Shown: positions 17,999 through 54,304, counted from the first letter of the stretch. The stretch is 64,000 bases of DNA from Kiritimatiellia bacterium (GCA_045656225.1 JAZOQU010000040.1:4697-68696), one strand, 5' to 3'. Notes: generated by a model not told the origin, from the sequence alone. Translations and numbers: made by a program.

Positions 17999-18224
17999 TC
18001 ACGATGATTACGCTCTTTATTTTAATATGTTGATAACTATTAGATAAATGTTAACATAAGAAGATAAAATTTCTATTGACTTAAATTATTTTTTAGCATT
18101 ATTGTCATTTATCACGGTTTTTTGCATATTTTATATAATTATCTATGTCGCATAAAATTAAGTAAATAAATGTTCACAAGATATCTCATATTTGCTATAA
18201 TTTAGCCAAAATATTATACCTTTT
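17999..18224. promoter_or_regulatory. AT-rich divergent intergenic region at the gene-strand switch; oriC candidate and mnmG promoter
   Basis: Very AT-rich 226 bp; perfect TGTTGATAA at 18028-18036 plus weaker boxes (TTATCACGG, TGTTCACAA). All CDS to the left are minus and those to the right are plus. Confidence 0.45.
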
Positions 18225-20102
18225 ATGCATAATTCCACTATATACGATGTTATTGTAATTGGCGGTGGGCATGCCGGCTGTGAAGCTGCCTTGGCTGCGG
18301 CTCGAATTGGTGTTAACACACTTCTTATCACCTCAGCGATTGACGCCATTGGTAAAATGCCTTGCAACCCGTCTATTGGGGGTCTTGCAAAAAGCCATCT
18401 TGTCTATGAGCTTGATGCACTCGGAGGCGAAATGGGAAAAAATGCCGACGCTACTGCCCTTCAATCTAAAACTCTCAATTCAAGTAGAGGCCCGGCCGTT
18501 CAAGCTACACGCACCCAATGTGCCAAGCTTGAATATTCTCTTAGAATGAAAAATATAGTCTTGTCTCAAGAAAATCTCACAGTAATTCAAGACTCGGCCA
18601 TAAGTATTTTAACTGACAATGATCTAAAAGATAATAAGATTTTATCTACTGGAATTAAGACTGAATTACATGGCGATATATATTCTAAGACTATTGTAAT
18701 TACCTCCGGCACATCACTACGCGGAAAAATCTGGATTGGAAAAGAAGGTATTGAAAGCGCCGGCGATAACCGTCCTGCTGTAAATAAGCTTTCTGAATCA
18801 TTAGAAACACTCGGATTCAAATTAATCCGCCTAAAAACCGGTACACCCCCAAGATTAAGAGCTTCCAGTTGTGATTTTTCAAAGTGTAAGCGCCAAAATG
18901 GTGAAAATCCACGCCCATTGTTCCACGTGGAACATCAAAACAATCGACAATCCTGTCTATTAAATTGTTCCACGTGGAACAAATATAAATCTAATACACC
19001 CCCAGAAGGATGTTCCACGTGGAACAAAAGCCTAAATTTACCTGAATATCCATGTTGGATGACACATACTAACAGTAAAACACATGAAATTATTAGGTCT
19101 AATTTAGATAAGTCTGCATTGTATGGTGGAGCAATTGTTGGTACAGGTGTTAGATATTGCCCGTCTATTGAAGATAAAATCGTAAGATTTGTAACTGCAG
19201 ATTCACATCATGTAATGCTTGAGCCGGAAGATTCTAAAGGTGAAATAATATATCCAAACGGATTAAGCTGCAGTCTACCAAAAAAAGTACAGGAAGAAAT
19301 GGTTCATTCTATTGTTGGTTTGGAGAATGCAGAATTTCTGGCGTACGCATACGCTATCGAATATGATGGTATAGATTCAAGAGAGTTGAAACATTCCCTT
19401 GAATCAAAACGTATAGATGGTCTCTTTTTTGCCGGACAAGTAAACGGCACAACCGGATATGAAGAAGCTGCTGCACAGGGGTTAATTGCCGGAATAAATG
19501 CAGCTCTTCTAACTAAAGGGGAGAATCCGTTAATTCTCAGCAGACAAGATGCTTATATAGGTGTAATGATTGATGATCTTGTTACTAAAGGTACTGATGA
19601 ACCGTATCGAATGTTCACAAGCCGTGCAGAAAGGCGCTTGATACTTCGTCAGGATAATGCAAGATTCAGACTTGTCGATGCAGCTGAAAAAATTGGAATC
19701 ATTTCTAAGGATCAAATAAAAGCAACCCGTCTTGTTTATAACTATATCATAAATGTTAATAACTTGACTGTTGAAGAGTTTATCGAAAATGTAAAATCAG
19801 ATTCCTTTACAGTAGAAAAATGGTTCAGTAAATCTGATATTGAAAATGAGATTAGGATTATGCGTCAATACGCACCGTATATTGAGCAAGAAGAAAAGGC
19901 TGCCCAAAGAGCCAAAGAAGATGAAAACATCAAACTTCCTAAATGGCTTGATTATGACAAGTGTACCGCAGTACGATATGAAAGTCGCGAAAAACTGAAA
20001 AAATACAGGCCGGAAACATTGGCACAAGCTAATAGGATACCGGGAGTGAATCCTGCAGATATCGCTGTTTTGGCAATTATAATTAAAAGAGGTAAGATTT
20101 GA
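18225..20102 (+). CDS. mnmG: tRNA uridine-5-carboxymethylaminomethyl modification enzyme
   Basis: FAD motif [45 protein letters not shown]; carries an extra segment with three parS palindromes. Confidence 0.93.
18919..18934. promoter_or_regulatory. parS-like centromere palindrome TGTTCCACGTGGAACA (copy 1)
   Basis: Perfect 16-bp palindrome matching the parS consensus TGTTNCACGTGAAACA at 15 of 16 positions (one half-site exact, A to G at position 12). Confidence 0.7.
18966..18981. promoter_or_regulatory. parS-like centromere palindrome (copy 2)
   Basis: 16-mer identical to copy 1, 47 bp downstream. Confidence 0.7.
19011..19026. promoter_or_regulatory. parS-like centromere palindrome (copy 3)
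   Basis: 16-mer identical to copy 1, 45 bp downstream of copy 2. Confidence 0.7.
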
Positions 20103-20217
20103 TTTAAATTTTTTATAAAGTTATCAACATAAATTGTTAATAAGTTGATTATACAAGTTGACTACTTATTGTTGATAACTTTCAGCAAAGTATGATATAG
20201 TAATCACGCTGAAACTA
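20103..20217. promoter_or_regulatory. dnaA upstream region with DnaA-box-like sites
   Basis: Perfect TTATCAACA at 20121-20129 and TGTTGATAA at 20170-20178, plus degenerate TGTTAATAA and AGTTGATTA. Confidence 0.55.
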
Positions 20218-21669
20218 TTGAAAGATTTAAAAATGAATAATAACGAGATTGATAATGCCTCCACAGATCTTTGGGAGCGTGCCATAACGATTTATCTGTC
20301 GACTTTACGCAACGATGAAGAACGTTCGCAAGCCGACAATTATTTCGCAATGATCACTTCTATCTCCGTAAATGACAATATCTTTACAATCTTTGTCAAA
20401 AACAAGTTCGCCGCTCAGTATCTCCAGGATAAATATGCCGAAAAACTTAAATTCTCGCTTAATCTCGCTGGAGGAAGCAAAGACAGCATACTTGAATTTA
20501 AAGAAGATCCAAAATCAAATCCTGTTATAATTCAACCTTTCACTCCAAAACCGGTTCCTGAAAATAGTCCGGCTCAAAATTTCAAGGATCAAAAGCAGGC
20601 TACGACACCTTTTATATCGACTCTTCCTCTCGAGGAAAACTACACCTTTGAAGAATTTGTTCAAGGTTCCTCCAACAGCTGGGCCTTCGCCGCGGCTAAA
20701 GGTGTAGCAAATAATCCCGGTCAAAAAAGTTACAATCCTCTGTTTATTCATGGTGGCACAGGATTGGGAAAAACGCATTTGATGCAGGCTATCGGCAATG
20801 AATTGAAGAAAAAAAATCCTTCAATGTCGATATGTTACCTGACCGCTGAAACATTTCTTAATGAATACGTAAATGCTCTTCAGCAGAAGGGTATGGAATC
20901 GTTCCGTGAAAAATACAGATCAATCGATGTTCTGTTGGTTGACGACATCCAGTTTCTTCAAAAAGGTAAACAGTGTCAGGAGGAATTCTTCAACACGTTC
21001 AACGATCTGACATGGAAACATAAACAGATTGTGATGACTTCGGACGTTTCGCCTAAAAATCTTCCGGCACTTGAAGAAAGGTTGATTTCGCGTTTTATCG
21101 GCGGTATGGTCCAGGAAATCGAAGCCCCCGGATACGAAACACGTTTGGCCATTCTGCAAAAAAAGGCCGAAAACCTAACTCCATCCATACCGCAATCCAC
21201 TCTTGAATTCCTGGCCGAGCACATTAAAAGCCATGTTCGCGCGATGGAAGGGGCTCTGGCTAAAGTTCATGTTACAATTTCAATAAATCCCACACAGGAA
21301 TTGACGCAGGATTTTCTTGCGTTAATCCTGAAAGATTTCATAGAAAAGGAACAATCTCTTAAAAAACTTACAATCCGCGAAATACAGGAATGCATCTGTA
21401 AAAAGTACGGCGTCTCGATAGGACAGATTCTTTCGTCGGACAGAACCGCCTCGCTGGTGACGCCACGCCAGCTCGCAATGTACATTTCACGCAAATACAC
21501 AACGAAGAGTCTTCAGGAAATCGCAGCTGAATTCGACAAAAAACACGCTACAATTCTTCACGGTGTAAAGGCAATAGAAAAACGTCTTGATGTGGAAGGC
21601 GAACTTAAAGCCGTTCTCGGTGAGGTTTTAGGAGAGTTTGGCTATAGCATCGCGGATAAAATGGAATAA
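20218..21669 (+). CDS. dnaA: Chromosomal replication initiator protein DnaA (track start is TTG; ATG at 20233 is more likely)
   Basis: Walker A GGTGLGKTHL, Walker B LLVDDIQF, C-terminal DNA-binding region RQLAMYISRKYT...HATILHGVKAIE. Confidence 0.95.
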   Translation: MKDLKMNNNEIDNASTDLWERAITIYLSTLRNDEERSQADNYFAMITSISVNDNIFTIFVKNKFAAQYLQDKYAEKLKFSLNLAGGSKDSILEFKEDPKSNPVIIQPFTPKPVPENSPAQNFKDQKQATTPFISTLPLEENYTFEEFVQGSSNSWAFAAAKGVANNPGQKSYNPLFIHGGTGLGKTHLMQAIGNELKKKNPSMSICYLTAETFLNEYVNALQQKGMESFREKYRSIDVLLVDDIQFLQKGKQCQEEFFNTFNDLTWKHKQIVMTSDVSPKNLPALEERLISRFIGGMVQEIEAPGYETRLAILQKKAENLTPSIPQSTLEFLAEHIKSHVRAMEGALAKVHVTISINPTQELTQDFLALILKDFIEKEQSLKKLTIREIQECICKKYGVSIGQILSSDRTASLVTPRQLAMYISRKYTTKSLQEIAAEFDKKHATILHGVKAIEKRLDVEGELKAVLGEVLGEFGYSIADKME

Positions 21670-21946
21670 ACAATTTAATCTACAGACATGTTTATAAAGT
21701 GTAAAGTTATAAACCTTTATCTTCTTATATGAAAGTTATCAAAGCTATCTTAAAAAAGAATGACAGGTAATCAACACCGGAAAATAAAAAAAGTCCAATA
21801 AAATAAAGCTGAAAATAAGTTATCTACACTGTCTACAATTCTATTAATAATATATACACTCTTTAATTAATCATTATTATTTGATACAATTGATGACAAG
21901 TGAAAAATCGTGAAGTCAAACCTCCAAGATTCAGAAAGAAACAAAA
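21670..21946. promoter_or_regulatory. AT-rich dnaA-dnaN intergenic region; oriC/DUE candidate
   Basis: Degenerate boxes TTATCAAAG, TAATCACA-like TAATCAACA, TTATCTACA; very AT-rich run 21840-21900. Confidence 0.45.
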
Positions 21947-23041
21947 ATGAAATTTAAAATTTTGAGATCAACGTTTATAGACGGGTTGAAGTCTGTTCAG
22001 AATATAGTTGGTTCTAAAGGTTCGCTTCCCATTCTTCAGAATGTGCTTCTTGAAGCCAACGGCAAAGAACTCAAGATGACGACGACCGATCTCGATATTT
22101 CAATCAAGAGTTCGGTTGAGTGCGAAGTTGTTGAGCACGGTGTTTCGACTCTTCCCGTAAAACTTCTTTTCAATTCCGTTTCAAAAGTTGCCGAAGGAAT
22201 TGTCGAAATAGAGATTGATGCCCGCGAGAGCGCTTCTATCACGGCCGGATCGGCGAAATTTAAAATCGCAGGTCTTCCTGAATCCGATTTTCCGCGTCTT
22301 CCGCAGAGCGATGATACATACGCTTATGAGTTAGAGAGCCAGACTCTTAAAGAAATGTTGCGTAAAACGTCATACGCTGCGTCCCAGGATGATACACGCC
22401 GTACTCTTAAGGGTGTATTGATGAGTTTTAAGGACATGAAGCTTACGATGGTCGCTACCGACGGCCGCCGTCTCGCCCTTGTTGAAAAAGAGATGGAATT
22501 TCCCTCTTCCGCCGAAAGGGATATAGTTCTTCCTTCGAAAGCGGTTCAAGAGCTTCAGCGTGCTCTTGGCGGTGAAGGTAATGTAAAGGTTATGGTCCAG
22601 AAAAGTCAGATATGCTTTGAGATAGGTAATATGAAAATCTATTCGAAGCTTATGGATGACGCATACCCGAATTATGTTCAGGTTATTCCGAAGAGTTGCT
22701 CCGAAAGTATTACAGTAGACCGTCAGCTGCTTCTTAACGCTCTCGAACGTGCGAGCGTTATGACGATGGATGAAGCGCATTCAACCAAACTCATTTTTGA
22801 GGATAATCGACTCACTGTGACTTCAGCCGCCAACGAGATAGGTTCTGCAAGTGATGAGGTTCCGATAAAGTTCGGAGGTCAAAAGCTTGAAATCATGTTT
22901 AATCCTAATTATGTGATGGATCCTCTCAAGGCTATAGATGATGATGAGATAAAGATAGAATTGAACAACGGTCATTCACCTGCGGTCATTAAATGTTCGA
23001 TTCCTTTCCTTTATGTTTTAATGCCTTTACGCACTTCGTGA
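21947..23041 (+). CDS. dnaN: DNA polymerase III beta sliding clamp
   Basis: 364 aa, MKFKILRSTFIDGLKSVQNIV N-terminus, three-domain length, C-terminus ...YVLMPLR; directly downstream of dnaA. Confidence 0.92.
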   Translation: MKFKILRSTFIDGLKSVQNIVGSKGSLPILQNVLLEANGKELKMTTTDLDISIKSSVECEVVEHGVSTLPVKLLFNSVSKVAEGIVEIEIDARESASITAGSAKFKIAGLPESDFPRLPQSDDTYAYELESQTLKEMLRKTSYAASQDDTRRTLKGVLMSFKDMKLTMVATDGRRLALVEKEMEFPSSAERDIVLPSKAVQELQRALGGEGNVKVMVQKSQICFEIGNMKIYSKLMDDAYPNYVQVIPKSCSESITVDRQLLLNALERASVMTMDEAHSTKLIFEDNRLTVTSAANEIGSASDEVPIKFGGQKLEIMFNPNYVMDPLKAIDDDEIKIELNNGHSPAVIKCSIPFLYVLMPLRTS

Positions 23042-25055: not shown

Positions 25056-28000
25056 ATGCGAAATATACTGACCTTATTCTTTGTCGCTTTTGTATTTAAT
25101 ATTTCACTATTTGCGGAGACGGCATTTGAAGCGGTTGTTAAAGGCTTGGGCGAATTTACCGTTTCGCGCGCTGACGCGGAGAATGCCACTTATAAGATCC
25201 GTTATCCTAATGCTGGCCCTCACAAGGGCGGTGTTCAGGTTTATGAAGATAGGTACATATCGTATTCCGCGCGAATGAATTTAGTTAGGCGCGGCTTAAC
25301 GGATAAACTCCCTAAACGGACTTTATATAAGGATTGTTACGTTTGGATAACGGGTGATGGTATTGAGAAGAATGTTGAATATTCGCAACTTCCTTACTTT
25401 CATTCAGGTTACGGCCTTTATCCGTCTGATGATGTTCCTAAATTTATGAGTGAATGGCGCAAGAAGTATGCTACTGGTAAGGATCGCGCCTATACATTCC
25501 GTTTTCTCCCTGATCACGACGATAACCGTACTCTTGTTTTTATCGACGGATCTTTAGTTGGGAGTATCCCTGGCATCAATCCCGTTATAGATGTGCGTAG
25601 TACGAATATGACGATCGTAAAGAAGGGAACTATTGAAGTTCTCTCTCAGATCGGTATGTATTCTTTACCCGTTCTCGATCCTGCGCGTCCTCATCCTCTT
25701 CTTGCGAAAGGTGCTAAACTCTCAATCGGTTCGGGCGTTAAAAAGTTCGACAATATTTTAATCGACGTTTGGAAGCCTGAGAATTCTGTAGATCAGTCGA
25801 AGATTCGCCAGACGACTCCTCATCGTGATCTTGTGTGGGATCCGATCTTTGCGCGTACGCGTTATCAGACGGGTCCGGAATATATGCATTGGGTAGTTCC
25901 GTGTAAGAGCTGGCTTTATGCGTGGGTAGTCTGCGCTGACATTCCGATGGAAGGCCGTGAACCTATTCTCGGCGTTCAGCTCGCTAAGCTTGGTAGAGGA
26001 TGCAGCCAAGGTAATATCAATATTTCGAAAGATAGGCTCGATGAGGCGTCACCTAATAAAAAAGTGATTGGCGAACTAGAGTATGTGAATAAAGAAGGTA
26101 AGCTCGTTAAGACACCTCTCTATCTCGTTAGACTTACGCTTGATCCAACTAAGCTCGGATCTCGCTTCATGAATAAATTTTCGCTCGACTTTGATTTCGT
26201 AGGTGACGGCGGTAGAAAATGGAATAAGTTGACTTCTGTTCAGATTTTTGGCGCGACTCTCCAAGAAGCTCCATTCTCGTTTAAGATCGTCAATCCTGTG
26301 CGCGGCAATATTTTCGAGCAGGGTACGGATGAAAAGAAGTGTTCAGTAGAAATTGTCGCCGAGACCGACGATGTCGAGGGTACTTTCGAAATTGAAATTA
26401 CCGATCCATATTTTAAGACTCTTAAAAAGTGGTCGAAGAAATTTAATTTCGCTAAGAATGGCGAGAAGCTTAATATTCCGATTAATCTCACTGATTTTGG
26501 AGTCGGCTGGTACGCTATGTTCTATAAGTTTAAGGATGCCTCTGGTTATGTTCTCGCCCAGCATGAAGCGGCGTTTACTGTTCTCGCTCCTGACGACCGT
26601 GAAGCAGGTTACGAGTCGCCATACGCTGGTTGGCCGCTTTTGAACGGTTATCACGGCGCTAACCCGAATCCGATTGAGCAGCTAGATATTATGCGAAAGG
26701 CCGGCTATCGTAAAACATGGGGTCAGTCGCTCCACGTTAAGAGCGAAGAGGAAGGTAAGCCTTGGAAGATTACGATGAGCTCGATTTATCAGCAGCTTCC
26801 GTATAATTCAGGGCGCCCGACTAAAACTTATGATGAGCTCGTGAAAAAATTCGACCGTGGTGTAGAGAAAGCTCGTGAAGCGTTTGAGAAGTTCCCTCAT
26901 TGTAATGTCATTCAGCTTCTCCACGAACAGGGCGGCAGAGATCTCGCTTACGAAGTCGCTCGTGAAAGACCCGCGGTGCGCGGCGAATATCGTGGTTGGG
27001 ATTTTGATAATCCTGGTGATTACGATAAGAGCCAGGAGGTCAGAGCTCGCTGGGAAGTATTCTTCTGTACGGAATTCTGTAAGCGCATGCGAAAGGAATT
27101 TCCCGGTAAGCGCATTATGATCGGCAACGGCTCTTCGGCTTCCGAAAAAATCGCCGCGCTTATTAGTAACGGCTTTGATCTCTCTCTCGTCGATCAGCTT
27201 GGTATTGAATCGAAGGGCTTTCAGGCGATGCCTGAACTTAATGCCAATCGCGAGTCTCCAGGAATGCTCTGGGCTCTTCGCGAGACGGGGCGCGTTTTCG
27301 GTTATACGAACTTTACGCTCAACGCTTGCAACGAATTTGTATTTCGTCCTGAGCGCACCGTTCAGCGTACTTGGTCACGCGATAAGATCATGCAGGTTAC
27401 TGATTTCTCGGTACGCGATTATTTAATCTGCCTTATCTGGGGCTGCGATATCATTTCGACGGGGCACCTCGAAGACGCGAATGACGCGTACTACGACACC
27501 AACTGGGGTGCGGCTGGACAGTGTAAGTTCTATCCGTATTCATACCCGAAGAGAATGTATACGGCGCTTGCGGTTTTGACGCGCGTTCTCGACTGTCCCG
27601 AATTTTTGCGCATGGTTGATTCGGGCGAGAATTCATCATACATAGCGGAGTTTAGGCGCAACCGTAAAACGCCCGATTTCGCGTATGCGCTTTGGACGCC
27701 ACTTTTTGGCGCGACTGCTAAAGTTAAGTTCCCTGTCAGCGCTAAGATTAAGGTCTATGATATTTGGGGACGCGAGTCTACGCTAGCTGAGAATGGTGAA
27801 ATCGACATTGGCTCATCGCCATGCTACATCGTTTCTACTGAGAAGATGGAAGGCGCGAAAATTGTCCGTCACTTCCAGCAAGGGCTCGCGGGCCGCGAAT
27901 ACAAAAAGATATTTGATTGTACAATTGAGAATTCATTTGTTTCATCCGTTACGAATCCGCCTAAGCTAAGCCGCGCTTATGATTCTCCCGTGTATCTCGG

Positions 28001-28556
28001 TAAGTTCGATATATTTATGGAAAAAGATTCTGAGCTTGGCGATGTGCTCGTCGCTAAGCTCGATAAGACGTTCGTTGATTCTCGTTACGGTAATGTAAGC
28101 GGCGTTATCCCCGAAGTCGCCTGGGAATTCGGGGGTATCGAATTTAAGAAGTCAGTTCCGTACATTACATATAAGCCCAACACTCGTCTCGCCGTGAGAC
28201 TTTATGGTAACTCTTCATTCTCAAAACTCTCTGTTATGTTTGAAGACGAGAATGGTAAGATACATTGGAGCGCGTTCGACATATACCGCAGTTACCAGTG
28301 CTTCCACGGCTGGCATACAATTGAGGCCGACTTCCCGAAGGAGCTTCGTGAAGATGGGCGTAAGTTCAGAGTTAAGGCTGTTATGTTCGGCGCGGCGCGC
28401 AAGCAGATCAATCCGAAGGAAATGGTCGAGATTCACGACAACTTTAAGCTTAAGGACGTTTATGTCGTAACCGTTCCCGAAGAAGCGGTGCCGGCTTCCG
28501 ACGAGGCGAAGCATGCGGCCGCTATCATGAAGACGGTAGATGATAAGGATTTGTAA
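25056..28556 (+). CDS. Large secreted protein (1166 aa), unknown function
   Basis: Signal peptide MRNILTLFFVAFVFNISLFAE; long uninterrupted ORF; no motif I can name. Confidence 0.6.
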   Translation: MRNILTLFFVAFVFNISLFAETAFEAVVKGLGEFTVSRADAENATYKIRYPNAGPHKGGVQVYEDRYISYSARMNLVRRGLTDKLPKRTLYKDCYVWITGDGIEKNVEYSQLPYFHSGYGLYPSDDVPKFMSEWRKKYATGKDRAYTFRFLPDHDDNRTLVFIDGSLVGSIPGINPVIDVRSTNMTIVKKGTIEVLSQIGMYSLPVLDPARPHPLLAKGAKLSIGSGVKKFDNILIDVWKPENSVDQSKIRQTTPHRDLVWDPIFARTRYQTGPEYMHWVVPCKSWLYAWVVCADIPMEGREPILGVQLAKLGRGCSQGNINISKDRLDEASPNKKVIGELEYVNKEGKLVKTPLYLVRLTLDPTKLGSRFMNKFSLDFDFVGDGGRKWNKLTSVQIFGATLQEAPFSFKIVNPVRGNIFEQGTDEKKCSVEIVAETDDVEGTFEIEITDPYFKTLKKWSKKFNFAKNGEKLNIPINLTDFGVGWYAMFYKFKDASGYVLAQHEAAFTVLAPDDREAGYESPYAGWPLLNGYHGANPNPIEQLDIMRKAGYRKTWGQSLHVKSEEEGKPWKITMSSIYQQLPYNSGRPTKTYDELVKKFDRGVEKAREAFEKFPHCNVIQLLHEQGGRDLAYEVARERPAVRGEYRGWDFDNPGDYDKSQEVRARWEVFFCTEFCKRMRKEFPGKRIMIGNGSSASEKIAALISNGFDLSLVDQLGIESKGFQAMPELNANRESPGMLWALRETGRVFGYTNFTLNACNEFVFRPERTVQRTWSRDKIMQVTDFSVRDYLICLIWGCDIISTGHLEDANDAYYDTNWGAAGQCKFYPYSYPKRMYTALAVLTRVLDCPEFLRMVDSGENSSYIAEFRRNRKTPDFAYALWTPLFGATAKVKFPVSAKIKVYDIWGRESTLAENGEIDIGSSPCYIVSTEKMEGAKIVRHFQQGLAGREYKKIFDCTIENSFVSSVTNPPKLSRAYDSPVYLGKFDIFMEKDSELGDVLVAKLDKTFVDSRYGNVSGVIPEVAWEFGGIEFKKSVPYITYKPNTRLAVRLYGNSSFSKLSVMFEDENGKIHWSAFDIYRSYQCFHGWHTIEADFPKELREDGRKFRVKAVMFGAARKQINPKEMVEIHDNFKLKDVYVVTVPEEAVPASDEAKHAAAIMKTVDDKDL

Positions 28557-28858: not shown

Positions 28859-29169
28859 AGAGTGCTACGGTATATTATCGTGACATACCAGCTGGTACGA
28901 TAGTTAAGGATGATGAAGGCTATCTTTTTCGTTATGATCCGCTATATTTTGCGGATGCCGCGATGCCAGATATATCGGCTACTTTACCTAAAACGCAACG
29001 TGAGTATCGTTCGAAGGTGTTATTCCCGTTCTTCTTCGGGCTTCTAGCCGAGGGCGCACAAAAAGAGCGTCAGTGCCGCGAACTACACATTGATGAGAAT
29101 GATCATTTTACACGTCTTGTTGAGACGAGCGCATTTGGTGCGATAGGAGCGGTATATGTTAAAGCTTGA
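28855..29169 (+). CDS. hipS: HipS-like protein (stand-alone HipA N-terminal subdomain)
   Basis: 104 aa; VYYRDIPAGTIVKDDEGYLFRYD...LFPFFFGLLAEG resembles the HipA N-terminal (couple_hipA) region; positioned between hipB and the kinase. Confidence 0.7.
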   Translation: MKSATVYYRDIPAGTIVKDDEGYLFRYDPLYFADAAMPDISATLPKTQREYRSKVLFPFFFGLLAEGAQKERQCRELHIDENDHFTRLVETSAFGAIGAVYVKA

Positions 29170-30046
29170 TTTTTCGGTCTCAGATTTAAATCTTCAAGTA
29201 AATAGGGATAAGACGCGTCGTGCGTCTATATCTGGTGTGCAGGATAAGGTGCAGCTAAAGCGCGTTCGCGGCGGATTTACCGTTGTTGAGTCGAATGGTG
29301 ATTATATCTTAAAGCCAGTACCTCGTAATACTTATGCGCAGCTCGCAAGTGATATTCCTGCCAATGAGGCACTGACAATGGATATTGCTGAGAAGGTGTT
29401 TCGAATTAAAACGGCAGAGCATGATCTCGTTGAAATGAAGGATGGTGAATACGCTTATCTTACACGGCGTTTCGATAGACGCGGCAACGAACTTGTTCAG
29501 CAAGAAGATTTTTGTCAGCTGTCGGAGCGCACGATAGAGACTCATGGCGAAAATTATAAGTATGACTCCAGTTATGAAGAGCTAGCTGGGCTTATGCGCA
29601 AGTTTTGTCCAGCAGCTGTTGTAGAGAATCCGAAGGTGTTTTTTCTAATTCTCTTCAATTATGTATTCGCCAATGGTGACGCGCACCTTAAGAATTTTTC
29701 ACTTTATCGAAGCGAGCATGGCGATTATATTCTTACTCCTGCATACGATTTATTGAATACGGCTGTGCATTTTCCTAATGAACCGACAGCAACGGGGTTA
29801 GACTTCTTCGCCGATGGGCATTTTACGCAATCATACGAGAAGCTTGGGTTTTATTCATCGATAGACTTTATTGAACTTGGCGCGGCATTTGGAGTTTTAA
29901 AAGAGGAGGTAAGTGAAATGATTTCGCTTTTTTCTGCTCGCAAGGATAATGTCGAGTCAATGATTGCGGCATCATATCTTTCTGAAGAAGCTAAGTCGCG
30001 GTATTTCTCGAAGTTTGCCGACCGGTTGAGAGCTATCGCGCAGTAA
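29156..30046 (+). CDS. hipT: HipT-like Ser/Thr kinase toxin (HipA core lacking the N-terminal subdomain)
   Basis: Gly-rich loop RASISGVQDKVQL (SIS motif), catalytic GDAHLKNFSL, TPAYDLLNT; 14-nt overlap with hipS. Confidence 0.75.
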   Translation: MLKLDFSVSDLNLQVNRDKTRRASISGVQDKVQLKRVRGGFTVVESNGDYILKPVPRNTYAQLASDIPANEALTMDIAEKVFRIKTAEHDLVEMKDGEYAYLTRRFDRRGNELVQQEDFCQLSERTIETHGENYKYDSSYEELAGLMRKFCPAAVVENPKVFFLILFNYVFANGDAHLKNFSLYRSEHGDYILTPAYDLLNTAVHFPNEPTATGLDFFADGHFTQSYEKLGFYSSIDFIELGAAFGVLKEEVSEMISLFSARKDNVESMIAASYLSEEAKSRYFSKFADRLRAIAQ

Positions 30047-32032: not shown

Positions 32033-32383
32033 ATGAGCATGAATTTAAATATTGAATCTTCAATACATTTGATAAGTCCAACGGATGTATTATCTACATT
32101 GCGCGAATGGGTAAAGCTTTCTCGTCAGCGTTTGGGGCTTACTCAAGAAGAGTTGTCGAAGAAATCTAATGTTCCAGCGACGACTATTTCGCGCTTGGAG
32201 CGTACTGGGCTAGCTTCAACTGATTCCTTAAGTCGCGTTCTTTTTGCGCTTGATCAATTAGATTCGTTTCATGAATTTCTCAAGGCGCGGTTACGTTTCG
32301 CGTCTTTCCCAAAAACTCTTGAAGATGAAGTTTCTAATAAGAAAATATTGCGCGTACGGCATAAAAGAGGGAACGAAAAATGA
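32033..32383 (+). CDS. hipB: XRE-family HTH protein, HipB-like
   Basis: LREWVKLSRQRLGLTQEELSKKSNVPATTISRLERTG; 4-nt overlap with hipA. Confidence 0.75.
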   Translation: MSMNLNIESSIHLISPTDVLSTLREWVKLSRQRLGLTQEELSKKSNVPATTISRLERTGLASTDSLSRVLFALDQLDSFHEFLKARLRFASFPKTLEDEVSNKKILRVRHKRGNEK

Positions 32384-33522
32384 AATTGAATGTATCATTC
32401 AGATTCTCGCCCGATCGTGTTATTCGCGTTGGAACTTTATATCAAAACGGTAGAGATTCGGCATTTGAATATGCCCAGCCCTTTTTTGCGGAAAAACTTA
32501 ATCCCGCGCCGTTTCGTCTACCTGTAAAAGAGGGTGTAAATATTTTCGATTGGTCTGGTGGTATGGAGACATTCGGCATGTTTGAAGATTCATTGCCGGA
32601 TGGTTGGGGTAGGCGGCTTGTTGATGTGATGTTTAGAAAAAGGAATGGGCGGCTACCTACTGTGTTAGAACGGCTATCTTGTGTTGGAAGCTCAGGGATG
32701 GGAGCTTTAGTATATGAACCTGAAGATAGCCCGGTTCAGCAGTATACTGAATTTGATTTAGCGGCTATTGCATCTGATGCTATGAACTTCGAATCTGGTC
32801 TTGCGGAGGATGTCCTGCCGCAAGTGCGACGAGCGGGCGGTAGTTCCGGCGGCGCAAGACCAAAAGCATTTATTGGCTATAATCCGAATACAGGCGAGGT
32901 TTGTGCCGAATCGGAGACTCTGCCAGATGGATTTGAGCATTGGCTCGTCAAGTTTTATACGAAGCGTGACGGTGATTGCGCCGGCGAGCTTGAGTATCGC
33001 TATTATAAGGCGGCGTTGGCTGCGGGAGTAGATATGTCGCCATGCCGATTATTAGAGACCTCTGCTGGAAAGTTTTTTGCAACAAAGCGATTTGATAGAA
33101 CGGACAATGGCGGGCGTTTGCATTTAGCTTCAATCGCTGGTTTATTGTATGCAAATTTTAGGATACCTGGTGATGAATATGAGATAATATTTAAGTTGAC
33201 GGATGCATTGACTCATGATTATTCGGCCAAGAAGGAACTTTTTAGGCGCGTTGCATTGAATGTTTTTGCTCACAATAGGGATGATCATCTAAAAAATTTC
33301 GGATTTTTAATGGATGCAAATGGTGTTTGGAAACTCGCGCCATTTTACGATTTTACTTATGCTGAAGGGCCGAACGGATGGCATACACTTTCAATTGCTG
33401 GAGAAGGGGCGAATCCGAGAGAGGATGATCTGCTAAGGTTAGCTGATAGTGTTGATCTATCGGTGAAAGACGCAAAAGAAGTCATAGAGATAACGAAAGA
33501 GGTTTCTCCCCATTGGCAATAA
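32380..33522 (+). CDS. hipA: HipA-family Ser/Thr kinase toxin (full length)
   Basis: N-terminal couple domain (FEDSLPDGWGRRL), P-loop-like GGSSGGARPKAF, catalytic NRDDHLKNFGF, APFYDF. Confidence 0.85.
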   Translation: MKLNVSFRFSPDRVIRVGTLYQNGRDSAFEYAQPFFAEKLNPAPFRLPVKEGVNIFDWSGGMETFGMFEDSLPDGWGRRLVDVMFRKRNGRLPTVLERLSCVGSSGMGALVYEPEDSPVQQYTEFDLAAIASDAMNFESGLAEDVLPQVRRAGGSSGGARPKAFIGYNPNTGEVCAESETLPDGFEHWLVKFYTKRDGDCAGELEYRYYKAALAAGVDMSPCRLLETSAGKFFATKRFDRTDNGGRLHLASIAGLLYANFRIPGDEYEIIFKLTDALTHDYSAKKELFRRVALNVFAHNRDDHLKNFGFLMDANGVWKLAPFYDFTYAEGPNGWHTLSIAGEGANPREDDLLRLADSVDLSVKDAKEVIEITKEVSPHWQ

Positions 33523-34855: not shown

Positions 34856-35221
34856 AGTAATTAAATATTATGAAGTTAACTTACTCACAGTATATCAAAG
34901 TCACTGAAAGCGTACAACGCACCTTTTACGGCAACAAACTGCGTCGCGAGAAAGAGAAGAACTTCAATTTGACGGTGGGTTTTAATTATGGTATTATTGA
35001 GGTGTTGTCATTAGCCTAAAAGGGTCACATTAGGAGAATGAAGCGAAGGTTCACTTGCAATATTATTATTGTTTCTACGCGTATTTAGCGCGTAGCGTGT
35101 TACCTTTGTTTTGTTGGTTTTTAGTGCGTACCTTTTTCGCGGTGAATTTAACAGGCACTCGCTGTTTAGGGGATAAAATCTTAAGCGGCAGGTGCAAAAC
35201 CAAAAAAAAAAGGGCACAATA

Positions 35222-38083
35222 ATGAAACAAATACTAAGTAAGTGCTTCAGTAAGATGAAGTGTGTTGCGCTTACATTGTTCGCCGCGCTTTGCGTCGGAT
35301 CAGTGTGGGGTGCGTCTGCAGAGTTAGAGAATAGTAATGCACGGATAGAGGACGGTGACTTTAAGTTCACAACCCTAATTACGCAAATAGGTTCAACATC
35401 AACCAGATATGGATATTTAGATGCTGAAGTATTGAATGCTAATGATGAAGTTGTAATTTCTTCTACTAGGCTTATTGATGGGCAAAAGTTTGCGAACAAG
35501 GATACCAGTACTTATCAACAATCGTTTGATTGTGTTTTCGAGGGTGTTGGAACTACGACTGAATGTTTTACGATTCAAGAATTTTATGATAAGGGCTATT
35601 GTGTAAAATTAACCTTCAATGGTACAAAGAAGACGTCGTACACAGAACTTGATTGCCCAGGCCATGGAGAGATTGTTATTTGGAGAGATACAGGGGTTAA
35701 TTCAAGCGAGATGAAGTTCGCTGAATCTTCATCGATTGTTGATGGTAAGCTTGTTGCCCCGTCGTATCCTTATGTATCGGGCGAGTATGATACGACAAAG
35801 GGTATTACTAAAATTGTAATAAGATATTCAATTAATGATAAATTATTTGCAAATGCAGTCACTAAAGAAGCGACTCTTAATAATAGTGATGGTACTTACA
35901 GGTGCGAGATACCCGCGGAATATGCGAGCGACATCATAAATTGGGAAGTTATCGTATATGCTGGAGCAGAGAGTGTTGTATATTATCGTGATCCAGGTAC
36001 TGCTTTGCAGAAACAGTCCGCAGTAATGCAAGAGGATAATCTAGAATTTACATGGTTAGGAACAGTTGATAATAAGTGGGATAGCCTTGGTAATTGGAGT
36101 TGGACTGGGCGCAGTGGATGCGGATATCCAGGTAAAAAAGCTTATTCGTATTATGTAACGAAAGCTAAGTTTACTAAAAATGCTGAGGTTGATTTAAACA
36201 GCGGTGCATATTATCTTTGGGATAATAACCGTGGTTTTGAGATGACAGAGGGTATTACGGTTAAGCTTAAAAATGGTACGCTCGGCTTTCAGCCTCATAA
36301 TGATGGTAGTAGGGCTACGTTGAATTTTGGTAAGGCCAATTCTACTCTTATTTTAAATAACGTGACTATGCCATATATGCCTAGTAAAGCTGATACTTGG
36401 TATTCTTTAAAGCCAGTTGATAGCTCTACTGTTGTTGTAGAAGGGACTAAGAATTACTACTGGAGATTTAACCCCGGCAATATAAATACGAAATTTAAGG
36501 TAATGGACGGAACGGTGCAGTCGGGCTATACCGCAGCAACTCCTGGTTCTGGCTCGCAGCTTGAAATTGAAAACGGAGTCTACATTGTAAAGGCTGATGC
36601 TGAGTCTGGGCTTGCTGCGACAACAACCTTCCGTGATGGACCAGATAGACAGGCTCGCTTATGGTTGCGTAATTCGAGCTCGGGGAGTACGTATTATAAA
36701 TTTAAGCTTTATGGAAAATATAACATAAAGATACCTGCAAGTCCTTATACTAGTGCGTATATTGCTTGCTCTTATATAAGTGCGGTTGACAATAATGCTC
36801 AGTTTGTTCTTGATGTAACTGATTACAAGGGCGGGGAAAGGGTTTTGCTTCTTAGCCAGCCAAGTGCAGGTGACGGAACGAATACTCGTATGGAAGACTT
36901 TTTAGCAAAAAGTTCATCATTAGTAATCAAAGTTAATGGTCAAACAGTTGAAAATTCTACGCGTAATGCTCGACTTGTGTGGGATTATTCGGAAAAGAAA
37001 CTTTATTATCAGCAGGATTCGTTAAACGCCGCGAAGATTGGTAATACTGAGTACGCGACGCTTGGCGCAGCGCTTGAGGCTGCGGCAGATGGTGCAACCA
37101 TTAAGGTTCTTAACAATGTTGAGATTACTTCTTACTTGCAGATCACTAAGTCTCTTACGCTTGACTTGAACGGCAAGTCGATTACGCGTACAGATTCTAC
37201 AGACAACTCCACAGCCCTCTTTGTGAATGCTGCTGACGCGATTGTCACGATTACAGGCGATGGCACTGTCACAGCTGATCATGCTGTGTATGTCAACGCA
37301 GGTAAGGTGGTTATTGAAAATGGTACATTCAGTGCTGGTACCCATGCCGTTTACGTGATCAATAATGGTAATGCCGAGATCAAGGGCGGTACATTCTCCA
37401 GTGAAGATGGTCAGTATCATTACGTTCTCAACGAGTACGATCAGACGCGTGATGCTACATCGATTGTTGTTACGGGCGGTACATTCGTTGGCTTCAATCC
37501 TGCTAATAACGGAGCTGAAGGTGAAAATACAAACTTCTGCGCCCTTGATTATGAAGCTGTCGCAGGTGATGTTGATGGGACATGGGTGGTTCAGAAAGCG
37601 ATCTCTGAGCTTAAGCCTGGCATCCCGGTAACTAACATTTCCGCTACGACTGAAGAAGAGGCAATCAATAAGGTAGAACTTAAGGTTGAAGTTCCTGAGA
37701 ATGCTAATATCACAAAAGATGAATATGCTGAATACTTCAAGATTGTCGCTACCGAAACTTCTGAAGGTTCGGGCGTATGGGAAGTAGCGGTCGTTCTTGA
37801 TGACACAAAGGTTAAGCCTGTAATCGCTGAGACGACGGCAGATGACACCACCAAGGAAGCGTTTGTAATTGACGATGACGGTAATGTTACGCTCAATATC
37901 AGCAATAAGAAGCCTGGTCTTTACTATGGTGTTCAGGTTCTTGCAGAACTTGGCGCTGATCCTGTAGCTGTCGTTCCTGAGACAGAAGCTGGCGCTCTCG
38001 TTGTTACTGCGGATGATATTCCCGACGGTAACGCTGCGTTCTTCAAGGTCGTTGTTGACTTTAAGCCGATTGTAGCTGAGTAA
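35222..38083 (+). CDS. Paralogous secreted surface protein P1 (about 953 aa from ATG 35222)
   Basis: Family signal peptide KCVALTLFAALCVGSVWGA, conserved core YYQQDSLNAAKIGNTEYATLGAALEAAADGATIKVLNN, beta-helix-like G-rich repeats, C-terminus FFKVVVDFK shared with P2. Confidence 0.8.
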   Translation: MKQILSKCFSKMKCVALTLFAALCVGSVWGASAELENSNARIEDGDFKFTTLITQIGSTSTRYGYLDAEVLNANDEVVISSTRLIDGQKFANKDTSTYQQSFDCVFEGVGTTTECFTIQEFYDKGYCVKLTFNGTKKTSYTELDCPGHGEIVIWRDTGVNSSEMKFAESSSIVDGKLVAPSYPYVSGEYDTTKGITKIVIRYSINDKLFANAVTKEATLNNSDGTYRCEIPAEYASDIINWEVIVYAGAESVVYYRDPGTALQKQSAVMQEDNLEFTWLGTVDNKWDSLGNWSWTGRSGCGYPGKKAYSYYVTKAKFTKNAEVDLNSGAYYLWDNNRGFEMTEGITVKLKNGTLGFQPHNDGSRATLNFGKANSTLILNNVTMPYMPSKADTWYSLKPVDSSTVVVEGTKNYYWRFNPGNINTKFKVMDGTVQSGYTAATPGSGSQLEIENGVYIVKADAESGLAATTTFRDGPDRQARLWLRNSSSGSTYYKFKLYGKYNIKIPASPYTSAYIACSYISAVDNNAQFVLDVTDYKGGERVLLLSQPSAGDGTNTRMEDFLAKSSSLVIKVNGQTVENSTRNARLVWDYSEKKLYYQQDSLNAAKIGNTEYATLGAALEAAADGATIKVLNNVEITSYLQITKSLTLDLNGKSITRTDSTDNSTALFVNAADAIVTITGDGTVTADHAVYVNAGKVVIENGTFSAGTHAVYVINNGNAEIKGGTFSSEDGQYHYVLNEYDQTRDATSIVVTGGTFVGFNPANNGAEGENTNFCALDYEAVAGDVDGTWVVQKAISELKPGIPVTNISATTEEEAINKVELKVEVPENANITKDEYAEYFKIVATETSEGSGVWEVAVVLDDTKVKPVIAETTADDTTKEAFVIDDDGNVTLNISNKKPGLYYGVQVLAELGADPVAVVPETEAGALVVTADDIPDGNAAFFKVVVDFKPIVAE

Positions 38084-39695: not shown

Positions 39696-42605
39696 ATGAA
39701 ACAAAAATTAATAAGTAAATTAAAGCGAGTAGCGCTCGCGCTTTTCGCCGCGCTTTGCGTCGGCAGCGTGTGGGGAGCCGAAATCTACACAGGAGGCGAT
39801 CCGATCTGTACATTTGATGTTCAGACAAAGAAGCTATATTTTAAACGTGGATTTACACCGTTTGAAAAAGGAACATATTGCATTTATTGTACTTACTCAT
39901 ATAATAATCAATCGGGTGAACAAATTTCAGGGGAAGGGCGAGCGCAAATAACAGCTACCAAAACTTATTGGAATGATGATAACTATTGGCCGAGTCTTAC
40001 CAAGGAGTTTGTATTGTCAGATTTTCCTGTCGGTGGAGTTTTAACGGCGTCAGTAGCGTTTCAGAAGCAAAATGGTAGTGAATGGGTAAATTGCGAAGAA
40101 TATGGCGATAGCCCCATTGTATTAAATTATTCGTTTGATACGGGTGGCGTCCTTTCTTCGGACTGTATCTGGCAAGTAACGCCAGAGAAAAAGTTTATCA
40201 TTTCGGGTCAGACTTCTGGTGGAAATATAAAGTCGGTTAGAGTGAGATATGTCGTTGGAAATTCAGAATATGCGGAATTGTCGAATGAAGCACAGTCGGT
40301 TGATGCAGAATACGACCCAACAACAGGAGCGTACAGAGCAGAAATTCCGTTTACGGAAAACGGGATCTTTTTATCATATAGTGTTTTTGCCGTATATGGT
40401 GATGCGACTGAAAAAATATACACTGATGCTCAAAGTTCAGACAATGTTTTTAGTACACAATATAAAGAAAAAGCATCTTGCACTTATACATGGCGGGGAG
40501 AAGGAGAAGATGATATATGGACAAATTTTGCGAATTGGAATATGGAGGGATTAGGTTTTGGTTACCCTGGATTAAATTACGACAATATAACTGGCGAATA
40601 TGTTGCTGGTACAGACGGTGCAAGAAGTACTGTTCGCTTTGTTGGGAATGCGGAAATAGATCTTGAAGGGAAAGCATATGAGTTTTATGAGCAGAATGAT
40701 AGTACTTCTGCCCAAAATACGCCGTATCGCGGGCTTACTTTTGAGAAGCCCGATGAACTTGATAAAATGTTTGTTGTTCTTAAAAACGGTACAATTGGAA
40801 CTAAAGTACCTGCTGATAGATATGGGCCGCTTCTTCTTGGCGCGGCAGGTGTGGAGTTGGAATTCCGCAACGCTGAGTTTAAGATAAGAACCGCTAGTAA
40901 TTATCTTCGTCTTAACAAAGACGCTACGATTGTATTTTCCGGCGATGAAGGTCGGTCTAAGAATCAAGCGTGGTATTTCGCGCCGAAGAGCGATATGACG
41001 AATAGCCGTTTAGTATTTCGCAACTTCATTGGTTATACGTATTATAGCGCGGCTAATACATCAATTGCTTCTGGTTCAGTCGTTGAGATTACAAATTCGG
41101 TCTGGAAAGTTAGAACTGGAACGTCGGCTGATTCTTCCGCAAGTAACGGCTTTGCCGAGAGGGTGGTTTTCCGTGATGGTGATGATCGCCAAGCTCAGTT
41201 GAAGTGTGTTGCGTATTATAAGGTTGGAAATACGACTGATGATCAATGGGCTAATATCAATCTCAATAATACATACGATATTAAGATTCCTGCCGCAGGT
41301 CATGAAGACGCAAGTATTTTCGCAAAGAACTTAACTGCGGGTCCCACGGGTACTTTCGAGATTGATGTAACTGATTATGTGACGGGAGAAAGGGTGCCTG
41401 TTGTGGAATTAATGGGTACACCTGCGTATACGACACTTCCAAAGCTTGTGGCCAAAGCGAACGGTGCTGATGTTACTGATGCCCGCAACGCCAAGCTGGT
41501 GTGGGACGGCAACTTTATGTATTATCAGCAGGATTCGCAGAACGCAGCTTCGATCGGTGCTACTGAGTACGCGACGCTCGGCGAGGCGGTTGAGAAGGCG
41601 GCTGACGGCGCTGCGATTAAAGTTCTTAACAATTGCACCGCTGATACAGCTTGCGTAATCGCTAACAAGACGCTTACTATCGACTTGAACGGTAAGACGG
41701 TTAAGGCGAATGATACTGACGCGGCGACCGATGGCAATGGCGTATTCTGGGTTCAGGCTGGCGGCGTACTTACGCTTGAGGATTCGAGCGAGGATAAGAG
41801 CGGTACTGTAGACGGTAATGGCGGCAATGGCTATAAGATGGCCATTTGGGCTGATGGTGGTAAGGTTGTAATTAATGCCGGTAATTACGTCAATGATAAT
41901 GATGGTACTCATAATCAGTACGATCTTATCTACGCTAAGAACGGTGGCGAGATTGTAATTAATGGTGGTACCTTTAAGTGCGATACTCCCCGTTGGACGC
42001 TCAACAGTCACAATACGAAGCCGGGTACGTTCGTAGTTACGGGTGGTAAGTTCTATCAGTATAATCCTACTGACTTCGATACCGACGAAGCCGTTACGAC
42101 TTGGTGCGATGCTAAGTATCGTGCTGAGGCTGATGGTGATTGGTATATCATTAAGGAGGGCTACACTGTTACTGAGGAATCGGCTGCTACTGTTACCGCT
42201 GATACCGAGGCTGAAGCTTTGGCGCAGGTCGACTTTAGTGTTACTACCCCTGATGGCGTAGACGCTACCGCTTATAAGAACTACTTTAAGCTTGTTGCGA
42301 CTGAGACCGCCGAGGGTTCCAAGACTTGGACAGTTGCTCTCGCTCTTAAGGACGAGCTTAAGCCTGTAATCGCTGAGACGACCAATGATGATGGTACGGT
42401 TACTCCCGCTCTCACCTTTGAGGATGGTAAGGTTACGGTCAACATCGAGAACGAGCTCCCTGGTCTTTACTATGGCGTTCGTTATGCTACGACAGTTGAG
42501 GCGGTAGATGCCGCGGAGATTGTTCCTGGCTTTACGGTTACGCCCGCTGAAGGCGATACGGCCGGCTTCTTCAAGGTCGTTGTCGACTTTAAAGAAATTA
42601 AGTAA
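39696..42605 (+). CDS. Paralogous secreted surface protein P2 (969 aa)
   Basis: Signal peptide LKRVALALFAALCVGSVWGA. N-terminal and central regions collinear with P3; C-terminal ~150 aa collinear with P1. Confidence 0.85.
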   Translation: MKQKLISKLKRVALALFAALCVGSVWGAEIYTGGDPICTFDVQTKKLYFKRGFTPFEKGTYCIYCTYSYNNQSGEQISGEGRAQITATKTYWNDDNYWPSLTKEFVLSDFPVGGVLTASVAFQKQNGSEWVNCEEYGDSPIVLNYSFDTGGVLSSDCIWQVTPEKKFIISGQTSGGNIKSVRVRYVVGNSEYAELSNEAQSVDAEYDPTTGAYRAEIPFTENGIFLSYSVFAVYGDATEKIYTDAQSSDNVFSTQYKEKASCTYTWRGEGEDDIWTNFANWNMEGLGFGYPGLNYDNITGEYVAGTDGARSTVRFVGNAEIDLEGKAYEFYEQNDSTSAQNTPYRGLTFEKPDELDKMFVVLKNGTIGTKVPADRYGPLLLGAAGVELEFRNAEFKIRTASNYLRLNKDATIVFSGDEGRSKNQAWYFAPKSDMTNSRLVFRNFIGYTYYSAANTSIASGSVVEITNSVWKVRTGTSADSSASNGFAERVVFRDGDDRQAQLKCVAYYKVGNTTDDQWANINLNNTYDIKIPAAGHEDASIFAKNLTAGPTGTFEIDVTDYVTGERVPVVELMGTPAYTTLPKLVAKANGADVTDARNAKLVWDGNFMYYQQDSQNAASIGATEYATLGEAVEKAADGAAIKVLNNCTADTACVIANKTLTIDLNGKTVKANDTDAATDGNGVFWVQAGGVLTLEDSSEDKSGTVDGNGGNGYKMAIWADGGKVVINAGNYVNDNDGTHNQYDLIYAKNGGEIVINGGTFKCDTPRWTLNSHNTKPGTFVVTGGKFYQYNPTDFDTDEAVTTWCDAKYRAEADGDWYIIKEGYTVTEESAATVTADTEAEALAQVDFSVTTPDGVDATAYKNYFKLVATETAEGSKTWTVALALKDELKPVIAETTNDDGTVTPALTFEDGKVTVNIENELPGLYYGVRYATTVEAVDAAEIVPGFTVTPAEGDTAGFFKVVVDFKEIK

Positions 42606-50878: not shown

Positions 50879-50940
50879 TTATCAACAATATTATCAACAA
50901 CTGTTGATAAGTTGATAAACCTGTTGATAACTGTTGATAA
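50879..50940. promoter_or_regulatory. Cluster of six TTATCAACA / TGTTGATAA (DnaA-box-like) sites
   Basis: Forward at 50879-50887 and 50891-50899. Reverse at 50902-50910, 50910-50918 (8/9), 50922-50930 and 50932-50940. Abuts the -35 TTGTTA (50949) of the downstream HTH gene. Confidence 0.6.
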
Positions 50941-50984
50941 CTTCTCCCTTGTTAAATCCTGAATAATAGTCCATAATATATGCC

Positions 50985-51461
50985 GTGACAAATCTACATC
51001 CAGATATTTGCAGAAAAATTAAAGATGCTCGCAGAGAACGCGGCATCTCTCAGAGCCTGCTTGCTAAAGAAGTAGGTTGTAAACAATCTGCACTGTCGAT
51101 GTTTGAACAGGGTGACGGTACTAAGCTTAATGATGAAGTTATTAAAAAGCTTTGCGATAAGTTCGGTATTAAGTTATCTACAGAGAACGCAGCGGTAGAA
51201 ATTCCGGTTGTTCCTGCCCCTCAAAGAGTTTTTGAAGTTGAGAAGGGTTTTTGCCCTAATCCCAATTGTCCTTCTCATACAGCCTACGAGGTTGACGGGC
51301 GAAGATTCTTAAAGCCCGACCGCCGCATTCAGGATCCTGTCGGCGGCAAATTCTGCGCGATATGCGGTGAAGTCCTTGAGAAGCGTTGCCCTAATTGCGG
51401 CTCACTTGTTCATGACGGTGCCGTCTGTTCCATTTGCGGCGAGAGTTACGTCGCCATATAA
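50985..51461 (+). CDS. XRE-family HTH regulator with C-terminal zinc-ribbon domain (GTG start)
   Basis: IKDARRERGISQSLLAKEVGCKQSALSMFEQG; CPNPNCPSH...CAICG...CPNCG...CSICG. Confidence 0.7.
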   Translation: MTNLHPDICRKIKDARRERGISQSLLAKEVGCKQSALSMFEQGDGTKLNDEVIKKLCDKFGIKLSTENAAVEIPVVPAPQRVFEVEKGFCPNPNCPSHTAYEVDGRRFLKPDRRIQDPVGGKFCAICGEVLEKRCPNCGSLVHDGAVCSICGESYVAI

Positions 51462-51517
51462 ACGGCGGGGATATCTCAGACGAACGGGACGACAGCAAAT
51501 ATGGTATAATACCATAT

Positions 51518-51790: not shown

Positions 51791-51799
51791 GGGGGCGAG

Positions 51800-53164: not shown

Positions 53165-53171
53165 TGTCGTT

Positions 53172-54266: not shown

Positions 54267-54304
54267 GGTTTTAAGTAGTCAATTAAAGAAGAAGGAAGAA
54301 GAAT

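Follow-up and report, generated by a model that had tools for sequence, protein, structure and literature searches.

A 64,000-nucleotide stretch of DNA from a Kiritimatiellia bacterium (GCA_045656225.1 JAZOQU010000040.1:4697-68696), hereafter called the window and numbered from its first nucleotide, carries three perfect copies of a 16-bp palindrome inside mnmG (gidA), the gene that precedes dnaA. These palindromes probably constitute a functional, origin-proximal parS array that loads the partition protein ParB and is hosted within a coding loop of MnmG; the probability of this reading is estimated at roughly 0.8. As judged from sequence comparisons, the copies are identical to validated parS sites, lie close to the likely replication origin, are under purifying selection at the DNA level, and recur in the MnmG loop of relatives in the Planctomycetes-Verrucomicrobia-Chlamydiae (PVC) group, in some of which a duplication mechanism can be recognized.

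The palindrome TGTTCCACGTGGAACA was located by exact matching at positions 18919-18934 (copy 1), 18966-18981 (copy 2) and 19011-19026 (copy 3), with no strand assigned and with start-to-start distances of 47 and 45 bp. The positions, the spacings and the placement inside the mnmG open reading frame (ORF) were those given in an earlier note on this DNA. That note had also described the word as the symmetric form of the ParB/Spo0J loading-site consensus, and the description was borne out. The 16-bp inverted repeat matches the consensus TGTTNCACGTGNAACA and is identical to the validated sites parS2 and parS3 of Pseudomonas aeruginosa, where one such site is both required and enough for proper segregation (PMC4368675), as well as to a site of P. 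putida (PMC7022226). Exactly three copies occur in the 64-kb window, all of them inside mnmG. When up to three mismatches were allowed on both strands, one extra match was recovered, at 24082 with three mismatches, against an expectation of 0.15 matches; a total of four was reached in none of 100 dinucleotide-preserving shuffles. No further site with two or fewer mismatches was found in the window, nor within 10 kb on either side of mnmG in the clade relatives L081-L087. Translation agreed with the peptides named previously. Copy 1 starts at codon position 2 and is read as (L)FHVEH, in frame +1 relative to the 16-mer, while copies 2 and 3 are both read as CSTWN(K) in frame 0, with copy 2 starting at codon position 1. 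The 16-mer contains no stop codon in any frame. Copy 1 takes the place of the usual MnmG motif P-F-S-F/W and is kept in L081-L087, L001 and L022.

The host gene (18225-20102, plus strand, 39% GC) is an intact ORF of 625 amino acids with the features of MnmG/GidA, namely the FAD-binding catalytic region (Pfam GIDA, 2.8e-146), the C-terminal helical domain (SAM_GIDA_C, 6.8e-22) and the GGGHAG motif. It matched the MnmG of PDB entry 2zxh at 1.5e-154. Loop lengths were taken from a MAFFT alignment of 81 MnmG sequences, comprising the window and 80 loci drawn from contigs at one genome per species, or from BLOSUM-anchored extraction, and were measured from the start of GTPPR to the start of T[HY]T[NT]. 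The three palindromes fall within an expanded variable loop so delimited (18840-19073, plus strand), at which the Pfam GIDA match splits. The loop is 74 amino acids long from start to start, equivalent to 69 residues between GTPPR and THTN, the same interval as had been counted before. It exceeds the 45 amino acids of E. coli-like gammaproteobacteria by about 29, so the surplus of roughly 30 residues over E. coli MnmG that the earlier note had given is upheld by alignment of orthologues. In 62 non-PVC loci the loop spans 44-48 amino acids, and parS was found in none of them (0/62). A HMMER alignment with E. coli MnmG was interrupted between query residues 234 and 267, and the alignment with Aquifex MnmG was gapped at the same place. 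An AlphaFold2 model was built on an alignment of 27 sequences from relatives that share 70-95% identity with the window protein. Residues 224-282 of this model had pLDDT values below 50 and no secondary structure, which hints at an exposed, disordered loop; the whole model was poor (mean pLDDT 61, pTM 0.55), and the conserved regions also scored low.

The array is positioned about 0.7-1.1 kb from likely oriC elements. The genes mnmG, dnaA (20218-21669; Pfam Bac_DnaA 1e-63, Bac_DnaA_C 2.5e-22) and dnaN (21947-23041; three domains of Pfam DNA_pol3_beta) follow one another on the plus strand and are succeeded by a plus-strand gene for an RlmL-like methyltransferase. The genes upstream of mnmG, encoding an MFS transporter, an SDR, an ArsP-like protein, BrkB and an amidohydrolase, are all on the minus strand. 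Gene strand therefore flips at 18.0-18.2 kb, and the cumulative GC-skew minimum lies at about 18-19 kb. A DnaA-box-like motif, GTTATCNACA, has eight matches in the window against 0.34 expected, and four of these flank mnmG and dnaA (18028, 20120, 20170 and 21819). The first, GTTATCAACA at 18028-18037, is found in the AT-rich divergent intergenic region between the minus-strand MFS gene and the plus-strand mnmG (17999-18224), where the strand switch and the skew minimum also fall. The next two form an inverted GTTATCAACA pair (20120-20129 on the plus strand, 20170-20179 on the minus strand) in the mnmG-dnaA intergenic region (20103-20217), a candidate oriC or dnaA-promoter element. The fourth, GTTATCTACA at 21819, is in the AT-rich spacer before dnaN (21670-21946). 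Because of the skew minimum, the strand switch, the gene order and the DnaA-box-like motifs, the array is placed near the origin, where a chromosomal parS centromere is expected to be.

Within the loop it is the DNA word that is conserved, independently of coding constraint. Relatives read the same word in all three frames in the same loop, as FHVEH/Q, CSTWN and VPRGT, and in L087, for example, LFHVEH occurs three times together with TVPRGT, each encoded by the exact 16-mer. The flanking residues complete the word, as FHVE is preceded by a codon ending in TG (L, M or V) and followed by CAN (H or Q), and CSTWN is followed by a codon starting with A. The codons used run counter to those of the rest of the gene, in which third codon positions are 28% GC. 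Outside the loop, mnmG uses CAC for 0 of 9 histidines, GTG for 1 of 29 valines and ACG for 0 of 30 threonines; all three codons appear in the parS copies. For a given peptide, the parS spelling has a probability of 1.5e-4 (LFHVE) or 2.6e-4 (CSTWN), and the joint probability is about 1e-11. Comparison with L081, which is fully syntenic and has an mnmG of 95% nucleotide identity, points in the same direction. Along the gene, identity per 60 nucleotides is 97-100%. Across the spacers (18945-19004) it is no more than 53%, and the high level is not regained until about 19240, and yet the 16-mers persist. Copy 3 of L081 is exact despite its diverged flanks. The lone 16-mer change is a G>A substitution in copy 2 (ACG>ACA), which is silent in the protein and constitutes a mismatch to parS. 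Among protein relatives at 95% identity, too, the spacers are scrambled and the parS peptides are invariant. The use of three frames, the anti-preferred codons and the hypervariable spacers thus show that purifying selection acts on the palindromes as DNA, with the peptide being arbitrary.

The region between 18945 and 19240 has the appearance of a mosaic allele, being 53-85% identical to the corresponding part of an L081 mnmG that is otherwise 97-100% identical. The C-terminal half of the window loop has the same protein sequence as the corresponding half in P0016 and P0017, although those proteins are only 84-85% identical overall. This mosaic tract suggests that diverged lineages have recombined at the array.

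The arrangement was also seen in relatives. The PVC sample consisted of 15 sequences: the window, two Verrucomicrobia metagenome-assembled genomes (L001, L022), Akkermansia (L002, L017), Kiritimatiellae (L003), L004, Opitutia (L005, L065), Verrucomicrobiales (L013, L030), Rubritalea (L020), Chthoniobacterales (L034), Victivallales (L042) and Akkermansiaceae (L070). Loop parS sites, in one to four copies that are exact or carry one mismatch, were present in 13 of the 15. The exceptions, L017 and L070, encode FRMEQ and FQVKQ where relatives have FHVEQ; these are decayed relics, and both sequences have parS elsewhere. The 15 PVC sequences (293 kb) contain 29 exact parS sites, 23 of them in the loop, which makes up 1.3% of the DNA. 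The 66 non-PVC loci (1.2 Mb) contain 28 parS sites and none in the loop, and the Planctomycetota, Parachlamydiaceae and Omnitrophica of the sample have the short loop. In a wider survey, 1.84 billion cluster representatives (50%-identity clusters) were searched exhaustively with HMMER and the best 144 anchorable matches were analysed. Between one and five parS-encoded peptides were found in 22 of these 144, in loops of 49-453 amino acids, and almost all of the others had loops of 42-49 amino acids. Some of the surveyed MnmG proteins are 1,041-1,169 amino acids long. Several extreme cases (P0251 with 1041 amino acids, P0258 with 1169, and P0250, P0257 and P0260) have loops of 220-453 amino acids in which two to four parS peptides are scattered through low-complexity sequence. 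Several other representatives have long loops, of 66-319 amino acids, with no parS peptides. Degenerate copies, read as RSTWN, CFTWN, CATWH, FHMEH and FHVER, were also observed.

Copy number varies among relatives at 70-85% identity, which have two, three, four or five copies. Tandem units with one parS each were detected in L022 (66 bp x2.5, 85% matches) and L002 (90 bp x2.5, 81% matches). Both periods are multiples of three, which indicates that the copies there arose by in-frame tandem duplication followed by decay of the spacers. In the window array and in L083 the spacers no longer resemble one another, and Tandem Repeats Finder detected no tandem repeat in either. Copies in the window's clade recur regularly, about every 45 bp (15 codons), which would fit an origin of the window copies from old duplications, by extension from L022 and L002.

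The earlier note had proposed that the enzyme tolerates an insertion whose main content is centromere DNA. The in-frame extra segment does carry parS, and to this extent the proposal stands; however, the loop also accepts insertions that have no parS. The loops of 61-63 amino acids without parS in Chloroflexi, the decayed relics in Akkermansiaceae and the 66-319-residue loops without parS peptides argue that tolerance is a property of the loop itself rather than of centromere DNA. The Chloroflexi-type MnmG proteins (L028, L032 and L066) have an independent version of the loop, 61-63 amino acids long, in which a proline-rich sequence is conserved, …PNP.YP…W[RP].QLPCY.

A second recurrent parS harbour was noticed in mnmG. 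It is in the variable linker that immediately precedes the conserved C-terminal helical domain, at about residue 530 of the window MnmG (about 19800-19830), a place where the window has no site. Linker sites occur at L021:11584, L026:2422, L039:11584 and L017:11577. The word is TGTTTCACGTGAAACA (read as VSRET) in Desulfuromonadales and Geobacterales, with a one-mismatch copy in a SAR11 genome, and TGTTCCACGTGGAACA (read as MFHVEH) in the Akkermansia that lost its loop sites. In Verrucomicrobiales and Rubritalea, parS is found just upstream of the mnmG start besides the loop site (L020:9867 and 9906; L030:4413; L070:4381; L013:4918), and in the Gemmatimonadota L027 and L050 parS sites bracket mnmG at both ends (9953, 11874). 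Thus mnmG seems to be a general parS anchor in several phyla.

Genes for the proteins that would act at the array were sought nearby. As the earlier note had stated, neither ParA nor ParB is encoded in the window, according to a motif scan, phmmer searches in which four ParB and three ParA sequences were compared with all six-frame ORFs of 60 amino acids or more, and Pfam searches of 40 ORFs; the motif, phmmer and Pfam scans found no SMC gene in the window either. The gene order within 10 kb in the clade is mnmE | mnmG-dnaA-dnaN-rlmL only. Many non-PVC loci of the sample have parS-family sites beside mnmG and parA-parB after mnmG-rsmG, in keeping with the earlier remark that many genomes have the order mnmG-rsmG-parAB here. 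ParABS homologues have been reported in all twelve OMM12 genomes, including that of the verrucomicrobium Akkermansia muciniphila (PMC10197239). Two further sources, PMC7203096 and PMC12704722, offered nothing usable about ParB in these phyla. When the Omnitrophica ParB of L047 was used as a query against a collection of 5.8 billion proteins, the best 120 matches were all from Omnitrophota, a result from a single query that bears on neither Kiritimatiellae nor Verrucomicrobia.

The working of ParABS systems, with ParB clamps, ParA-driven segregation and SMC recruitment, is summarized in PMC13438810 and PMC10197239. By analogy with these systems, a ParB encoded in this genome would bind at the array, and the array would serve in chromosome segregation and SMC loading. 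ParB dimers would recognize each palindrome, bind CTP, close as clamps and slide off. The resulting partition complex would span mnmG, dnaA and oriC, would be segregated by ParA and would recruit SMC. As a word without stops in any frame, the palindrome could sit in a coding loop tolerant of arbitrary sequence, where its copy number could change by in-frame tandem duplication and loss, so that the enzyme loop would become longer or shorter. The gene mnmG is conserved and adjoins the origin, and it belongs to the ancestral order mnmG-rsmG-parA-parB; these PVC lineages no longer have parAB beside it. A parS array inside an indispensable gene beside dnaA would hold centromere and origin together, and embedding in mnmG may therefore have kept parS linked to oriC after parAB moved elsewhere.

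Several points weigh against the interpretation of the palindromes as a ParB-loading array in an accommodating MnmG loop. Neither parA nor parB was found in the window or, for any of the PVC relatives, in the 10 kb around mnmG. Loop sites have been lost in the two Akkermansiaceae L017 and L070, which shows that this location can be dispensed with when parS is present elsewhere. Long loops without parS exist in Chloroflexi and in some of the representatives, so parS is not in every case the driver of expansion. Exposure of the loop could not be confirmed from so poor a structural model.

Among the other explanations considered, an unlikely one is that the sites are bound by something other than a segregation ParB, for example an orphan ParB-like clamp or a transcription factor, and control the expression of mnmG and dnaA or the initiation of replication. 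The sites lie within a transcribed gene, and dnaA begins 1.1 kb downstream of them. Regulatory roles are common among orphan ParB-like CTPases (PMC12704722), and ParB itself can regulate near parS (PMC5521831). Against this, the word matches the canonical chromosomal parS at 16/16 positions and is common to several phyla, which favours canonical ParB; sites of the same type occur near mnmG in many non-PVC loci with adjacent parAB, and no candidate regulator genes are found nearby.

It is quite improbable that the palindromes are relics, inherited from an ancestor with ParABS and unused in this genome, for instance after loss of ParB. This would explain why parAB is missing from the window and, in every PVC relative, from the 10 kb flanking mnmG on each side, and L017 and L070 demonstrate that loop sites can decay. 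Disuse should, however, bring such decay here, and yet all three copies are perfect while the spacers are only 53% identical between strains with 95%-identical mnmG genes. Rare codons have been maintained as well, and duplication is still producing new copies in relatives.

There is very little to recommend a selfish or structural palindromic element, such as a repetitive extragenic palindrome, a miniature inverted-repeat transposable element or a recombination hotspot, inserted in mnmG by chance. The array tract is divergent and mosaic between close strains, which suggests recombination, but the 16-mer alone is conserved amid unrelated flanks, and across phyla the element is limited to an origin-proximal gene. 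A dispersed element of this type was rejected on the grounds that the window has no further copy in its 64 kb, unrelated flanks and no tandem unit. The notion that FHVEH and CSTWN form a protein-level motif of MnmG, such as a metal-binding repeat, with the palindrome as a by-product, draws on the His- and Cys-rich, recurrent nature of these peptides and can be set aside after the frame and codon tests, since the loop contains one DNA word read as three peptides that have nothing in common, the codon bias of the gene is overridden at fixed synonymous positions, and the relics FRMEQ and FQVKQ (L017 and L070) show the peptide to be unconstrained. An assembly artefact was likewise rejected, since dozens of assemblies made independently show the feature.

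If the palindromes are indeed a ParB-loading array, a broader proposal can be made, although only tentatively and with the odds somewhat against it. In Kiritimatiellota, Verrucomicrobiota and Lentisphaerota the MnmG loop may be a dedicated, evolvable centromere cassette and the principal, perhaps the only, ParB loading array. Selection on copy number would then drive the in-frame expansion of this essential enzyme, with loops of up to 453 amino acids, and the position of the array in a transcribed gene directly upstream of dnaA would couple assembly of the segregation complex to the origin after parAB had left the ancestral cluster. Were this true, nature would offer a clear instance of protein sequence being dictated by a cis-acting element of chromosome maintenance.

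Intragenic and clustered parS sites are already known. In P. aeruginosa PAO1, nine of the ten parS sites are intragenic (PMC4368675). The array in the window resembles the parS sites of P. aeruginosa and P. putida, with their parS1-4 cluster near oriC, in the identical word, the several origin-proximal copies and the mostly intragenic placement (PMC4368675, PMC7022226). It is unlike them in that the Pseudomonas sites are distributed over different genes, none of them gidA, at 10-20 kb from parAB (PMC13438810). The Pseudomonas sites also fit existing coding sequence, whereas the window array lengthens a protein loop in frame, and Pseudomonas parAB follow gidAB, whereas in the window parAB is not near mnmG. 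The clusters of Myxococcus, Corynebacterium, Streptomyces and Caulobacter are similar insofar as closely spaced parS sites act as one centromere near parAB and oriC (PMC7022226, PMC7083940). Those clusters extend over kilobases, with several genes and spacers beside parAB, whereas the PVC loop has two to five sites at a spacing of about 45 bp in a single protein loop. A further likeness is to insertion-tolerant loops and expansion segments, as a lineage-specific, low-complexity, fast-evolving insertion is seen in a conserved enzyme, with loop lengths of 44 to 453 amino acids; unlike in expansion segments, the conserved content here is a cis-acting DNA element and not a peptide feature. In Bacillus subtilis, a parS site lies inside the coding region of spo0J (parB). 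As in that case and in other cases of intragenic parS, treated in general terms in PMC10197239, a ParB loading site would be contained in an expressed gene near the origin. Those examples differ in being single sites in existing protein sequence, with no sign of copy expansion or of a dedicated variable loop, and in B. subtilis the host is parB. In the searchable literature, no description was found of a parS harbour in the MnmG loop, in-frame copy expansion, use of three frames, and spread across Kiritimatiellota, Verrucomicrobiota and Lentisphaerota as one arrangement; the classic 2007 parS survey (Livny et al.) fell outside that scope.

The arrangement may be helpful in the study of chromosome segregation in PVC bacteria, which is experimentally almost unstudied, as it provides a simple sequence-level prediction of where the centromere is located. 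When genomes of these groups are assembled from metagenomes, the peptides FHVEH, CSTWN and VPRGT in MnmG could serve to mark the origin region, and parS peptides would explain puzzlingly long MnmG annotations (up to about 1,170 amino acids). The dual coding is unusually clean, with a fixed DNA word, an arbitrary peptide and three frames, and a non-coding function would here lengthen and reshape a conserved protein. A role in DNA segregation appears to have shaped the MnmG protein.

Several other features of the window were recorded. The GC content of mnmG-dnaA and their spacers is 31-40%, compared with 50-56% in the 17 kb on the left and 39-57% on the right side. In the window the divergent neighbour of mnmG is the MFS transporter gene, and mnmE (trmE) is absent among the window ORFs scanned. 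In L083-L086, mnmE is divergent and upstream of mnmG, adjoining it in L085 and L086 and 7 kb off in L083. The region from about 25000 to 50900 is a probable genomic island. It contains four large ORFs without a Pfam match (25056-28556, 35192-38083, 39696-42605 and 44674-48165), two HipA-like kinase genes (29156-30046 and 32380-33522) and a gene for an AAA_14/DUF4143 ATPase (43043-44353). A second cluster of GTTATCNACA, consisting of two adjacent copies at 50922-50941 and a third at 51173-51182, is far from dnaA and is located at and just upstream of an HTH_3/double-zinc-ribbon (DZR) gene (50985-51461) at the right edge of the putative island. In L083, rlmL is followed by an ORF of 245 amino acids, one 41-amino-acid call, and then the HTH_3/DZR, PAP2 and GH35 genes that correspond to positions 50985-57718 of the window.

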